Numbered from the stretch's first letter, positions 6,779 through 63,722 are shown. The stretch is DNA of 64,000 bases from Eledone cirrhosa (GCA_964016885.1 OZ024743.1:102486001-102550000), one strand, 5' to 3'. Notes: generated by a model from the sequence alone, not told the origin. Program-made: numbers and translations.

Positions 6779-6994
6779 TAATTATGTAATAAACAACATA
6801 AGACAATTATTCCATTTACCAAAGGTTTCACGAAGACAGGCGAGCTCAACAGAGACGTATGAAATCGGTCATCAGAATGAGCATTTAAATTTTCATTCTG
6901 ATGATCGATTTCATACGTCTCTGTTGAGCTCGTCTGCCTTCGTGAAACCTCTGTTAAATGAAATAATTGTCTTATGTTGTTCATTACATAATTA
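6779..6994. repeat. Inverted repeat (arms of about 100 bp) with a hammerhead in each arm
   Basis: 6779-6880 is the reverse complement of 6893-6994; this is why the ORF track shows near-identical peptides on opposite strands here. Confidence 0.92.
6891..6963 (+). ncRNA. Putative hammerhead ribozyme (mirror copy at 6810-6881, -)
   Basis: tttcatt-CTGATGA-long stem II-GAAA-cctctg-TTA-aatgaaa; the minus copy reads GAAA-CC-TTT-GG-TA-aatgg. Stem II pairing is weak. Confidence 0.6.
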
Positions 6995-7544
6995 GAGAGA
7001 GAGAGAGAGAGGGAGAGAGAGAGAGTTATGTGTGTGTTTTGCAGCGTTTATATTTGTATTTGCGACGGCATCCTTGTCCCATCAACTAATGATTCGACAA
7101 CGAGTTCAATGAAACAAGCACCTTAACGATATATCTAATGGGCTTGATATTATTGACTTTAATGCGGTGCCCACATTCAAATGACTGAAATCAGTAGAAT
7201 ACGAATTAAATGAATAATAAAATATACATTAAAATAATAAACAACTTGGACACAAAAATGAAAAAGTAGATGAATTATAAAACTAAAGTATACAAATGTG
7301 CACATGAAATATATTTGTGAAATAAAATATAAATGTTTAATGTCCATATATAATCAATAAAAAACGGTAGGAAATCGATATATGAATGAATAAAACTATA
7401 CATATCAGAGATATCGTCCCCATACTTGTTGATTTTACAATGTGCTTATTCATGATATGTTAATGACTTTTGTCTTGTCTTCTCTAACTATGTGCAGTAA
7501 TTATAGGTTATTCACAATATCATTCTAGCATGATGAAGTGACAG

Positions 7545-7870
7545 ACAGCAAATTGGCTGAATCATTGAGATGCCGGAATAAAAGCTTCATGGTATACGTT
7601 CCGGCACTCTGCACTCTGAGTTCAAACACTGCCACAACTAACGTTGCTTTTCTTGTTTTCAAGATTGATAAATAAAATACCGGTTTAATACTGGGGATGA
7701 TTCTACCTTTATACACCGTTTCTTACTTCTCATTCGCTTTATTTTTTTTTGCCATGGAAAAATGTTAATGTGTTCGGATCTGGAGAGAGATGGGCCCCAC
7801 CAAGTTCAAAATGCCAAACACTCTCCGTAAAAGACCCATGACATGGAAGGCTCACATGACTAACAGCTAT
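7545..7870 (+). mobile_element. Old SINE with the alternative tail
   Basis: ttggctgaatcattgaga...ctgagttcaaac...ttgataaataaaatacc, then the tail gatgggccccaccaagttcaaaatgcc. Confidence 0.5.
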
Positions 7871-8034
7871 GTACATTTATGTAGACACAAGGATTAACAT
7901 GTGTTCTTGGATAAGCACGTAAAAATACTGCGTCATACACATACGCACCTTTACGTTTAGCAGTAGCTCTAACATATCGTGGTTCATAATAGGGTTGTAT
8001 ATGAAGGCTTATACTATATATATACGCGCGCGCA

Positions 8035-8135
8035 ACACACACACACACACACACACACACACACACACACACACACACACACACACACACACACACACAT
8101 ATATATATATATATATATATATATATATATATATA
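8035..8135. repeat. (CA)n(TA)n compound microsatellite
   Basis: Read directly. Confidence 0.97.
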
Positions 8136-9361
8136 CAGTATATATATAAAAATTCCATGTACGTCAATACTCATCTTTTTCGACGTCTTAGGTTCTAAAC
8201 CCCACTATCAGACTAAAATTTCTTTAGTAAAAAAAAATGCGGCGAAAGCTTCTATTTCTAATTCTAATATATAATTTATATGTATACATACATGCATATA
8301 TATATATATATATATATATATATACACAACAAAATCTATAAAAACAATTGTTCATGTCTCCAGTTTTATTTCAAATTTACTCCTTCAATTATCTAAATTT
8401 CCTACAAAAACGTCAGACAAAAATCAATTTTGTTTGTTTCTTTTAGCTGAGTAAAATCAACATTGACTAGCTAAAATCAATAATCACTTTCCAAGGCCCC
8501 TTAGAAATGATATATTACAACGTCACCCCTTTTTCAGTAATTCCGGAGTCTTAGGCGATGTCAGAAATCAATAATCAAACTTACTGTACATATTAACTAT
8601 ATCATGTCAACGACAATTCATTTTAGCATGGTAGAAGCAGAACTGTTCTTATATATATTTAAATATAGATCTCATCTATACTATTTTTTCGATATACAAT
8701 GACATTCCGACTATTCGCATTTAATTACAGTTTAAATGAAGAATGAAGAATGTAACTTTTTTTAATATAATTGTTTATTTTAGTCGTTCTGATTTCAAAT
8801 CACGTCGAGGTCAACCTTGCACTTATTCGTTCCTGGGTATTATTTTCAATTATTAATAAGATCATGGGTCGATTTAATCGGTTCATCCTCCTCCTCATTC
8901 AAAACAAATTGTTGGCTTTCGGTCTAAATTAGAAACTATTGTTTTCAATCCAATCTGGGAACAATAAATTATCCATTTTTTTTAAAATATAAAAATGTTA
9001 ATGAAATTAGTTTAAAACATGACGAAACTTCGAAGATGTCTTTTCACTGATTATTCTATCTTGAGATTGATGTATCTCTATGTATGGGACTGAAAACTAT
9101 TTGTATGGTTTCTAGAAATAAATAAATATAAATTCTTCCGATTTACACTGATTATACTTATGTGAGCCCATGAATCTATCCACGAACAGTCAAATTAACT
9201 TCTAGTAGGAGACCGAGCAGATTAAAATAGCCTCCATTGCTCCCTCAAATAAAAACAAATATATGATAGTATGATATATATATATATATATATATATATA
9301 TATATATATATATATAATAGAAAACGAAAAATCAGTGATGCATTTGAACTCAAATTTATTG

Positions 9362-9486
9362 TGTGTTATAATTGTTTCGCCGGGGAGTACCCTGAAAAAA
9401 GGTGCCCAAAGAAATGAGGTTAAAAGGGTGAGATTTTATATTGTGTGGATCTGTCTGATTCCGTACCCGCTGGTTCGACGGACACA
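9362..9486 (-). ncRNA. Putative hammerhead with variant CCGUCGA core
   Basis: Minus strand: tgtgt-CCGTCGA-accagcgggtac...gtactccccggc-GAAA-caatt-ATA-acaca, then AATAAA, then (TA)n. One stem III mismatch. Confidence 0.6.
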
Positions 9487-9662
9487 TCTGTAAGAGCATT
9501 GAGTGCTCAACCGGTCTACCGCCTATCGACGCATTTTAGCTTCCACCAGACACACACACACATATATATATATGTATTAAAGAGTTAAACAAGATTCAAT
9601 GAGTACATCAAAGAATGAGATTGGAAGCACTCTACATAAAAAATAATTTTCCAGAGTTATTA

Positions 9663-61014: not shown

Positions 61015-61240
61015 AATGCTGGATTGTCAAAATTAGTAGAGCCCCGAGGAAAATGCCCTTGCGGTATTTTTTCTTGCTTGCTACATTCTGTGTTTCGATA
61101 TGGCTGAGGGTAATTTTGCTTTTCATCCCTTCGGAATCGATAAAAGACAGTATCTTTCAAGAACTAGAGTTGATATAATCAACCTGGCCCTTCTTCCAAA
61201 CTTTTAATGGTCTTGTACCTAAATAAAAAATCAATATTTT
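61015..61240 (+). mobile_element. Decayed SINE (family-A related)
   Basis: ttttgcttttcatcccttcggaatcgataaaag...ggtcttgtacctaaa. Confidence 0.6.
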
Positions 61241-61761
61241 TGACATTGGTGTGAATGTCACACAATCTCATCCATCCCTGAGTTAATTTGAATTGAGTCT
61301 AAAGGCCGCTAGTAAGACAAGGAACTAAGTCCTCAATAGGTTCACGTCCTGATTCAGGTATTAGGCTGGATAAACTATTGACAGTTTATCTAAGAATCTA
61401 TTTTCAAATAGTGGCCCCTAATAGTATCAGTCCACTTTCAGTAAGAGCCTCTGCCACTGTAAGCTCATGTAACATAATCTTCAACGAGAAGTGGACACAT
61501 TTCTATGTCAAAGGGAATGTTTATCATAATCACTTGAGTAGGCTGCAATAAAACAATAAAAAATCAAATTAAGCTAGGGAAATATCTAGACACCGTGTCG
61601 GATTTTAAATCCTGAACGTACGCAATTCAGTCTGCATATATTACTAATATTGACGACTTAATGAACGTCATGTTATGAGAATATTCAAAAACTGAATTGA
61701 ACGTTTGCTTTTACAAAGTTATTGGAAACATTTATTTTACCGTTTTTATCCTACATTCTAT

Positions 61762-62544
61762 GTAAGTATGTATACGTTAATACATATATGTATACAGACG
61801 TACAGTAGTATGTATATATATATACATACATGCACACATATATATATATATATGTACGGATGGATTCACCAAACATTTATTATAATGCTCGGTGTGTTTG
61901 TAAACAAACATCCCGTATTAAGCCGTAGTGTCTAGCAACTACCGTTGCTCGTTTGTTCAACACTGACAAAGGAACGCTGTACTAGTTTCAAGCTTGTTAG
62001 CTATCGTCAGCAACGTATATCTTCCTGCCAGATAGTTGAACGTCCGAAAGTATATACTTTCCTTATGCATATTAACGGGTGAGTAGCCCAATTTGCATAT
62101 CGAGTGGGTTAATCGGCCGGGTGCACCGAAAACGATAAACGGAAAAAATGAAACGAAATTTCATTTCCCACTCTTAGTACGGCTGTTACTTAAATATAAG
62201 TATGTATACGTACATACGTACATACATATATGTATACAGACGTACAGTAGTATGTATATATACATACATGCACACATATATATATATATATGTACGTATG
62301 GAATCACCAAACATTTATTATAATACTCGGTGTGTTTGTAAACAAACATCCCGTATTAAGCCGTACAGTGTCTAGCAACCACCGTTGCTCGTTTGTTCAA
62401 CACTGACAAAGGAACGCTGTACTAGTTTCAAGCTTGTTAGCTATCGTCAGCAACGTATACCTTCCTGTCAGATAGTTGAACGTCCGAAAGTATATACATT
62501 CTTTATGCATATTAACGGCTGAGTAGCCAATTTGCATATCGAGA
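61762..62544 (-). mobile_element. Retrozyme-like tandem repeat, about 1.8 x 440 bp, one HHR per unit
   Basis: Direct repeat with period 440; identical HHRs at 61974-62016 and 62414-62456 on minus. Confidence 0.88.
62414..62456 (-). ncRNA. 43-nt minimal hammerhead (second copy at 61974-62016)
   Basis: acgttg-CTGACGA-t agct aaca agct t-GAAA-c ta GTA-cagcgt; palindromic stem III ACTAGT. Confidence 0.88.
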
Positions 62545-63270
62545 CAAGTTCTCTTTAAACTCCCGTTGATAAAATCTTTCATGTGAGGGACCTGTCGGAA
62601 TTCTATAATTTCTCTGTTTCATATTGCTAGTTAGTTCAGTTGGAGGCACTACTGCTTTACTATTTCCTTATCGCAGAATGTATGCTTTTGAAGAATTCAT
62701 TACTTTTTTTCTGTGCAGTAGAATACAAAATATACGGTCACAAGAATAGCTGAGACTATATTAGGGCGGAAGATTTCTAATATCTATGACTAAGTCGATT
62801 AATTTTTAGAAAGGTAATTGAGTGAGTGAATGTTGTTAGATATCGCAGATTAATAGAGTACACGACGGCAAGCACTGTTGGCAAAACTGAAAATCTTTGT
62901 CAGTGTATGTATATCTGAATGATATAGTATTGAATGTCTATGGACCATTAACCCCTGATAAAGTCGTAGAGGTGCCGTCGTGACATATGACATTTTGAAC
63001 ATTGCTGAACTCATCCTCACCAGGTCTAACCATAACCGATGTCTACCAGAGAAGGAGAGATAGAGAGAGTGAGATATAGAGAAAGTGAGAAAAGGGAAGT
63101 AAGAAATAGATATAGAGAAAGAATCGATCCAAATACTAGACTGTTTGTTTTTTTATAACGATCTCGGGAGGATAAAAACCGAAGTGAACTCTGAACGCAG
63201 AAATCAGAAACGAATAACATAAAGCAATGTACCCGAGGCTCAAATGTCTATTCGCTGCCATTGTACATAT

Positions 63271-63425
63271 GCACACACACACACACACACACACACACAC
63301 ACACACACACACACACACACACACACACACACACAAATACACACACGCACGGACACACAAATACACACACACATACACATAACAAACAACACACATACAC
63401 ACACGCACGCAAACACACACACACA
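63271..63425. repeat. (CA)n microsatellite
   Basis: Read directly. Confidence 0.95.
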
Positions 63426-63537
63426 TATATATAATATCAATTTCGATGAGGATGATCAGATGTACGTGTAACTTCTAAATTAATATGTAGGGGGATGATT
63501 ATTCCATAAAATATATATATATATATATATATATATA

Positions 63538-63722
63538 TAAGGAAGGAAATGTGGTAAGGAACCAGATGGACCATAACGCACCAAAGTACTCAATACTTAG
63601 GGTAGTAGAGTGGGTAATAGGAACGAGTAGGACCCCGACGGCTGAGCTCAAGCCGTTTCGACGGCTAATTCTGGACTAAAATGTTTTAGTCCAGAATTAG
63701 CCGTCGGGGTCCTACTCGGCCC
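63538..63722. mobile_element. Miniature fold-back copy of the 35-36 kb family, between (TA)n tracts
   Basis: Minus-strand tail and HHR 3' half, then hairpin gacggctaattctggactaaaa-tg-ttttagtccagaattagccgtc, then ggggtcctactcg. Confidence 0.85.

Follow-up and report, generated by a model that had tools for sequence, protein, structure and literature searches.

We analysed a 64,000-nt stretch of the AT-rich, 3.0-Gb genome of Eledone cirrhosa (GCA_964016885.1 OZ024743.1:102486001-102550000; hereafter the window), which carries numerous predicted type-I hammerhead ribozymes that we relate to Penelope-like elements (PLEs) of the Hydra clade. An earlier note on this DNA had claimed about 20 hammerhead motifs in about 11 families; all 21 listed motifs were located, at most about 0.1 kb from the positions it gave, and 11–12 families were counted, named below by their window positions in kb. 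The new part is that core position 4 (and 6) is changed in a family-fixed manner, as CAGAAGA, CCGANGA and CCGUCGA, in thousands of copies.

Results

Eleven motifs satisfied the type-I order (stem I, CUGANGA, stem II, GAAA, stem III, NUH, stem I) with an intact core, stems I and II, GAAA and a palindromic stem III; their cores lie at 6875−, 9757−, 9874+, 31045+, 34505−, 36871+, 48616−, 55305−, 56472+, 62010− and 62450− (signs give the strand), the first having a weak stem II. Two motifs (35072− and 36272+) have the U3-A8 type core UUGAUAA, and four are damaged copies: 6898 by a stem III change and a weak stem II, 30711 by a change of U16.1 to G, 48861 by loss of the stem I 3' strand, and 55825 by a broken first stem I pair. 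In the remaining four, a non-canonical core is the family consensus (CAGAAGA at 31282; CCGUCGA at 9481, 49613 and 51961), and these depart from the otherwise invariant U4 and A6. The earlier note had filed these four among ordinary hammerheads and overlooked their consensus-breaking cores, the least ordinary feature of the set.

The window was searched with a relaxed type-I descriptor, which tolerated a mismatch at the stem II foot and accepted long stems II as well as stems III that were palindromic or extended, with the core CUGANGA or UUGANAA. It gave 13 exact-core matches against a mean of 0.48 and a maximum of 3 in 50 local dinucleotide shuffles, i.e., an excess of about 25-fold over the shuffled control that the earlier note had proposed. 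Permitting two core mismatches anywhere yielded about 10 shuffled matches per window and mostly added noise. As strict descriptors require the stem II foot to be paired, they recovered just 4 and 9 motifs. The Rfam hammerhead search, proposed as a further check, did not serve as one: no hammerhead family appeared among the 150 listed of 188 matches (E up to 10), although the motifs are real, and the listed rows were microRNA (miRNA)-type hairpin noise. In 17 of the 21 motifs, a (TA)4+ or (GA)5+ run lay no more than 150 nt from the predicted cut site, which is true of 16% of random positions; the distance was no more than 175 nt in 20 of the 21; AATAAA followed within 40 nt downstream in 8 of the 21. 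The observation made in the earlier note is confirmed. A TAGCTAA/TCGCTAA repeat with a short stem and GAAA at 58287 (minus strand), also present in L132, L139 and L290, passed the loosest descriptor; as a hammerhead it is doubtful and was left out.

At the left of the window, a fold-back type-I pair (6779..6994) joins the intact minus-strand core 6875 to the damaged plus-strand core 6898, its arms being 92% complementary. A Hydra element stub on the minus strand (9300..9554), which maps to the coding copy L357, carries the CCGUCGA core 9481 with a 35-nt loop II insertion, together with an inverted tail. Next to it lies a fold-back canonical pair (9658..9975; cores 9757 minus and 9874 plus), a stub of a Hydra pseudo-long terminal repeat (pseudo-LTR) that maps to the insertion L248, which bears an open reading frame (ORF); in the genome this hairpin has 1,495 candidates, and the 40 scored were 91–100% identical across the whole hairpin. 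A broken C-terminal piece of a Hydra ORF follows on the plus strand (9976..10653), with the CxCx5C linker and GIY-YIG, 35% to the protein P0002 described below.

Several islands are clustered between 30 and 37 kb. A damaged minus-strand hammerhead of the ACUAAUUAGU group (30598..30736, core 30711) is followed by an intact canonical one on the plus strand (31039..31100, core 31045) with AATAAA and (TA)26. A 5'-truncated Hydra element on the minus strand (31178..32986), 93% to the complete copy L367, comprises the ORF end (32894-32225), the 3' untranslated region (UTR), the CAGAAGA hammerhead 31282, (TA)n and an inverted tail (32897-32986). Joined to the inverted-tail end of this element is a tail stub of the UUGAUAA family (32995-33081; 92–94% to L234), and these families often sit inside one another's (TA)n ends. 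An intact canonical minus-strand hammerhead (34410..34532, core 34505) with AATAAA and (TA)34 is 82% to a sixth coding Hydra family (L354), which is ORF-bearing. It is followed by an inverted pair of 3' ends of the Hydra UUGAUAA family (34969..36453; cores 35072 minus and 36272 plus), with a long stem III, (TA)n on both sides and a complete copy in L234, and by an intact canonical plus-strand hammerhead (36865..36980, core 36871) with an 85-nt stem II domain, AATAAA and (TA)29.

In the right part of the window, a decayed minus-strand copy (47227..47336, core 47333), absent from the first listing, precedes a fold-back pair (48515..48960) in which the minus-strand core 48616 is intact and the plus-strand core 48861 has lost stem I. 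An autonomous Hydra CCGUCGA family is represented by a 5'-truncated, partly inverted insertion (49371..52111; core 49613 minus with tail, core 51961 plus) flanked by (TA)n and 89–96% to L239. A non-coding unit of ~520 bp occurs in tandem and inverted copies (55061..56598; cores 55305 and 55825 minus, 56472 plus; truncated copy at 55995), also with (TA)n flanks, and a retrozyme-like non-coding unit of 420–440 bp forms a tandem dimer on the minus strand (61760..62543; cores 62450 and 62010). Finally, a fold-back stub of the UUGAUAA family (63534..63722) without the CUGA-side core forms an incomplete hammerhead. Truncated UUGAUAA-related pieces without a complete hammerhead were also seen at 30500-30584, 37975-38060 and 56690-56830, the last two judged by eye.

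We examined the protein encoded by the elements. A first look at the genome yielded 66,191 candidates for the ORF piece at 32.2–32.9 kb, and long open copies gave a 713-aa frame, P0002. This single ORF has reverse transcriptase (RT) followed by a C-terminal GIY-YIG, with the motifs RWR, DKT, YRDDG, CxCx5C, IVY..YIG, CxxC and CxH. Motif-defining residues were 94–100% conserved among 118 aligned proteins, except for the K of RWK (71%), where P0002 has RWR, and ESM Atlas matches to the C-terminal part of P0002 were named GIY-YIG (0.95–0.97). The same motif set marks the Hydra clade as described in PMC8557442, in which nearly all Hydra families carry hammerheads and insert into (TA)n, and whose supplement lists an Octopus bimaculoides member, Hydra-1_Obim. 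By these motifs, the elements belong to the Hydra clade of PLEs. A complete element runs hammerhead, tail, RT + GIY-YIG ORF, 3' UTR, hammerhead and (TA)n, and complete or near-complete copies with pseudo-LTRs were found for CAGAAGA (L367), UUGAUAA (L234), CCGUCGA (L239) and CCGAAGA (L352 and L360). Most copies are 5'-truncated, frequently with an inverted piece that gives back-to-back hammerhead pairs. Such pairs are the known inverted, 5'-truncated form of PLEs, not DNA transposons.

The window islands could be linked to these elements. L367 matches the 31.3-kb island, L234 that at 35.0/36.3 kb and L239 that at 49.6/52.0 kb; L357 supplies the 5' half for the 9.4-kb family, and L248, an insertion that carries an ORF, has the 9.7/9.9-kb motif at its boundaries. 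Over the main segments, the islands align to the linked elements at 85–100%. Five of the 11–12 window families are the ends of autonomous Hydra-clade elements, and a sixth (34.5 kb) is closely related to one. For the 9.4-kb family, tail read-through to the ORF was absent in the 30 loci searched, and the ORF was reached through paired pattern matches. Its tail usually ends in (CA)n and then (TA)n (L262-L291), unlike those of other families. The 55-kb and 62-kb units contain no ORF of 90 aa or more and have a type-I hammerhead in each copy; the 62-kb family forms 18 tandem units in L171, and a relative of the 55-kb unit forms a trimer in L354 with periods of 571 and 556. The islands at 55 kb and 62 kb are retrozyme-like non-coding tandem units, which are likely mobilised by Hydra elements. 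The islands between microsatellites had been read as retroelement 3' ends of a Penelope/retrozyme system. This reading stands: they correspond to pseudo-LTRs of GIY-YIG Penelope-like elements or to non-coding tandem units ending in (TA)n, the hairpins map to the ends of RT-coding elements, and the clade, unnamed in the earlier note, is Hydra. Further tandem hammerhead arrays were observed in L144 (6619-9719, minus-strand count; 310-bp period, 11 units) and L260 (~460 bp, 4 units).

We then counted the variant cores genome-wide. Similarity-ranked loci favour the core of the query, and cores were therefore recounted with patterns fixing the flanks only; the first 100 matches listed for each pattern were tallied by hand. 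The 52-kb family had 315 matches, with 81 CCGTCGA and no canonical core among the 100 listed, and the 9.4-kb family had 1,001 matches, with 71 CCGTCGA and no canonical core among the 100 listed, most of the others being CpG-type changes. In the 31.3-kb family, 96 of the 100 listed were CAGAAGA. Outside the window, the ACRAUUGU group contained 79 CCGANGA and 19 CTGANGA among the 100 listed (about 8,000 CCGANGA), with complete coding copies in L352 and L360. In the canonical AUAURUAU group, C4 was found 566 times (control 88) against 80,154 matches, i.e., just 0.6–0.7%, which argues that the variant cores are not sporadic mutations. ADAR editing was rejected as a source of A6U and U4A, as neither is an A-to-G change on either strand; U4C might still have arisen in this way.

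CCGUCGA amounted to about 2,000 intact copies over two families. Across 167 columns around the motif, the similarity between these two is about 50%; they differ in stem I (GGGU/ACCU and GUGU/ACAC) and stem III (ACGCGCGU and ACAAUUGU), and their protein identity is 36–67% depending on the segment. We built an RT tree of genome copies and database relatives (a quick IQ-TREE run with the SH-like approximate likelihood-ratio test (SH-aLRT) as the sole support; core labels taken from locus maps, one being uncertain). The two CCGUCGA families were sisters (SH-aLRT 99) beside a canonical clade (96), with C4-only families outside (82–88). The simplest reading of this topology is a single origin of C4+U6; two independent CCGUCGA origins are unsupported by the tree.

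The folds are similar in architecture across families. The short stem III segments were perfect palindromes in 23 of 39 cases, with many different sequences, although the descriptor required only 65% pairing, and all four Watson-Crick pair types occurred across 46 family representatives. In the C4 group (27 sequences), 94.7% of cells pair. In predicted monomer folds, the full junction is highly probable for the U3-A8 family alone (stem I 0.98, A15.1-U16.1 0.84). Among the 46 representatives, many unrelated-looking families have a pyrimidine mismatch at the fourth pair of stem II (C-C 9, U-U 3, C-U 3), and the first pair frequently does not form; this may be a conserved internal loop.

Element ends abut (TA)n, and copies terminate at two fixed sites downstream of the hammerhead; the read-through sequence starts with TA at both. 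In the 52-kb family, 12 of the 39 distinct proximal ends run into (TA)5 and 11 continue with the commonest tail start, whereas 14 of its 21 tail ends run into (TA)5 and 4 continue through a TA into the ORF leader. In the 36-kb family, 9 of the 20 proximal ends run into (TA)5 and 10 read on; the corresponding numbers for 35 tail ends are 31 and 2. These junctions indicate that Hydra elements insert into a putative (TA)n target. From the ends at internal TA and their abutment on (TA)n, we infer that the endonuclease nicks (TA)n and that the nicked end pairs with the internal UA of the element and primes reverse transcription. The template must reach 20–170 nt past the predicted cut site and would therefore be RNA running beyond the ribozyme, i.e., uncut, tandem or circular.

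The density of hammerheads was compared between the window and a genome sample of 59 stretches of 10 kb (590 kb) at round-number, evenly spaced positions. With core positions 4, 6 and 7 free, the sample gave 87 matches, of which 69 were CUGANGA against 0.62 when shuffled; 25 of these 69 sit in two tandem arrays, so that CUGANGA occurs once per 8 kb with the arrays and once per 12 kb without them. The same descriptor found 12 canonical or U3-A8 and 3 CCGUCGA motifs in the window, i.e., one per 4–5 kb. The figure of one motif per 3 kb in the earlier note includes damaged copies; counting intact or family-type motifs gives one per 4–5 kb. The window is not a special hot spot: its density is about twice the sampled genome average and its (TA)n content is lower (3.0% vs 4.0%). 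High hammerhead density is a property of the whole genome and is not peculiar to the window.

Exact patterns, each paired with a reversed-pattern control, were counted genome-wide. We obtained 80,154 matches for the AUAURUAU group (control 130), 28,412 for the 62-kb family (control 2), 12,632 for the 31.3-kb family with a flanks-only pattern (control 0), 9,755 for the short ACRAUUGU group (control 51) and 3,658 for a loose U6 pattern (control 158), of which about 60 among 100 listed begin with CCGTCGA. The five patterns sum to about 130,000 matches, which is a minimum, and the 590-kb sample extrapolates to a few hundred thousand hammerheads. This genome is about ten times smaller than that of the axolotl. 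At least about 130,000 matches in 3 Gb are of the same order as the 120,000 retrozyme copies given for the axolotl (PMC7229834).

The window also contains other features. On the plus strand, an open frame at 52805-53296 matches Pfam ANF_receptor above the cut-off (E 4.6e-6) and is likely a host exon. Two minus-strand regions, 19376-19864 (RVT_1, E 3.5e-4) and 33505-34338 (PHD, E 4.5e-4), match below the cut-off and are probably fragments of long interspersed nuclear elements (LINEs). A 197-bp unit is present in three tandem copies at 5065-5656, which we take to be an octopus-type short interspersed nuclear element (SINE). A purine-rich/pyrimidine-rich fold-back occurs at 38798-38920, where several miRNA models match below their cut-offs.

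Discussion

We consider it highly probable that the motifs are type-I folds in the terminal repeats of Hydra-clade elements and in non-coding units likely moved by them, that most can be predicted to cut as dimers, and that the position 4/6 variants are likely slow-cutting while their fold is under selection. The palindromic stem III would let two copies pair and cut. Because copying seems to require RNA past the cut site, weak cutting may be tolerated or favoured, and C4, A4 and C4+U6 cores would spread while stems I–III, G5, G8, A9 and GAAA stay.

Several observations weigh against this interpretation. The pairing across the 46 family representatives (stem I 92%, II 71%, III 95%, vs 43%, 39% and 58% with shuffled partners) is partly built in, as the descriptor itself selects pairing. 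Both-sided change in the C4 group was found in only 2 of 14 pairs (4 cells; 0/500 shuffles), and the core is often buried when monomers are folded in silico. P0002 had no match to RT or GIY-YIG in Pfam, and a PDB sequence search with P0002 matched no solved structure. No ORF was linked to the 6.8/6.9, 31.05, 36.9 and 48.6/48.9 kb families, for which no direct search was made. Around the motif, the 9.4-kb family is closest to one with A6 and about 30 C4 and 68 U4 among 100 listed, whose ORF was not found; a relative that is A6 and mostly U4 would therefore require reversion or a module swap. As to priming, an anole element studied in vitro has two internal initiation sites that define the tail, a protein-assisted hammerhead and no need of cleavage for insertion (PMC11167929), but its initiation took place without target homology, in contrast to the TA pairing proposed here. 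Lastly, pairwise mutagenesis of a type-III hammerhead left CUGA-region single and double mutants with low activity except for the C3-G8 swap (PMC9901934), and the C4+U6 core may accordingly be dead.

The last two reports also lend weight to the view that C4, A4 and C4+U6 are dead ribozymes that hitchhiked in a master copy as cutting was dispensable, leaving the fold as a vestige or protein-binding shape only. Besides the low activity of CUGA mutants and insertion without cleavage, anole reads neither start nor end at the cut site (PMC11167929), Naiad elements thrive without canonical hammerheads, and position 4 is U, C or A depending on the family. We regard this as a serious possibility, though we rather doubt it: G5, G8, A9, GAAA, A15.1-U16.1, a non-G base at the cut site and the complete CCGUCGA heptamer are shared by two families at 36–67% protein identity, C4 and U4 copies coexist in one family, and U4C remains sufficient in vivo in a viroid (PMC3088659). 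That the motifs might instead be chance matches in AT-rich, repeat-rich DNA, or hairpins of DNA transposons resembling miniature inverted-repeat transposable elements (MITEs), is suggested by the roughly 10 shuffled matches per window with two core mismatches and by several islands being near-perfect palindromes. Such an origin is extremely improbable and we reject it, given the approximately 25-fold excess of exact-core matches over shuffles, the genome patterns at hundreds-fold over reversed-pattern controls, and the mapping of hairpins, with a one-sided tail, to the ends of RT-coding elements.

CCGUCGA could also be a fully working alternative core with compensatory changes, perhaps aided by the long conserved stem II domain, a non-Mg metal or an element protein. 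Its fixation in two old sister families with their intact copies, the single-C4 families nearby in the RT tree, which suggest a stepwise path (support of 82–88 only), and a natural A6C variant that cuts well in Mn (PMC7151607) would fit. However, the CUGA region showed no positive epistasis except C3-G8, albeit in the one ribozyme tested (PMC9901934), and A6U was never seen without C4, although the two related carriers amount to one event; we regard full compensation as unlikely. We tentatively entertain, while leaning against it, that CCGUCGA is a working natural core that arose by way of a C4 intermediate and was preserved while two retroelement families diverged deeply, that position 4 tunes the cutting rate, and that consensus searches miss tens of thousands of hammerheads. 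Why PLEs keep a hammerhead that is a poor cutter and dispensable for in vitro insertion is an open question. The autonomous, complete-ORF families of this genome provide a natural allelic series (U4, C4, A4, C4+U6 and U3-A8) that bears on it. Cutting by the variants would mean that the hammerhead core is more plastic than one-scaffold mutagenesis implies, and absence of cutting would mean that the fold is retained for a non-catalytic purpose.

Hydra elements with hammerheads in (TA)n are already published, octopus included, and the system itself is known (PMC8557442, PMC4209133, PMC7229834). No paper on the CCGUCGA core or on cephalopod hammerhead counts was found in the literature searched, which did not extend to Lunse et al. 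2017, a work that may describe variants, and the word "ribozyme" is absent from the main text of an O. vulgaris repeat paper (PMC13282606). The Hydra clade with C-terminal endonuclease (EN+; Craig et al. 2021, PMC8557442) shares with our elements the single RT + GIY-YIG ORF, RWK/RWR, DKT, CxCx5C, CxxC and CxH, as well as the terminal-repeat hammerhead, (TA)n insertion, inverted 5'-truncated pieces and tails. It includes one octopus family, whereas there are many here, and its elements are described as shorter than 3 kb, whereas our 52-kb family is about 5 kb long. The hammerhead rows of its File S2 are all CTGANGA, in contrast to the autonomous families here that are fixed for UUGAUAA, CAGAAGA, CCGANGA and CCGUCGA, and six motif strings from the variant families are absent from its supplement.

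The minimal PLE hammerheads of Cervera and De la Pena 2014 (PMC4209133) are also similar, with a short stem I, a long stem II with an unpaired foot base, a palindromic stem III and a dimer model, and with many heterogeneous families, opposite-strand pairs 100–700 bp apart and the U3-A8 variant. That study counted 2,000–9,000 per genome with a stricter descriptor, compared with about 130,000 here from five patterns, and its available text mentions no change at position 4 or 6, which is family-fixed here. Metazoan non-LTR retrozymes, for which a PLE origin is proposed (PMC7229834; Li et al. 2026, bioRxiv 10.64898/2026.07.22.740005), resemble the 62-kb and 55-kb units in being non-coding tandems of a few hundred bases with a single type-I hammerhead per unit, in PLE-containing genomes. 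Circular RNA is reported for retrozymes, whereas the units here are known from genomic DNA; the 55-kb unit (520–570 bp) exceeds the retrozyme range of 150–450 bp, and the majority of the window motifs belong to PLE ends rather than to retrozymes. Neither the available text of PMC3088659 and PMC7151607 nor the literature searched contained the C4+U6 pair. Natural changes at the same single positions, U4C in a viroid (Perreault et al. 2011, PMC3088659) and A6C in phage Bcep176 (Naghdi et al. 2020, PMC7151607), have reduced but non-zero activity; they are rare single cases, whereas C4 prevails here across thousands of copies.

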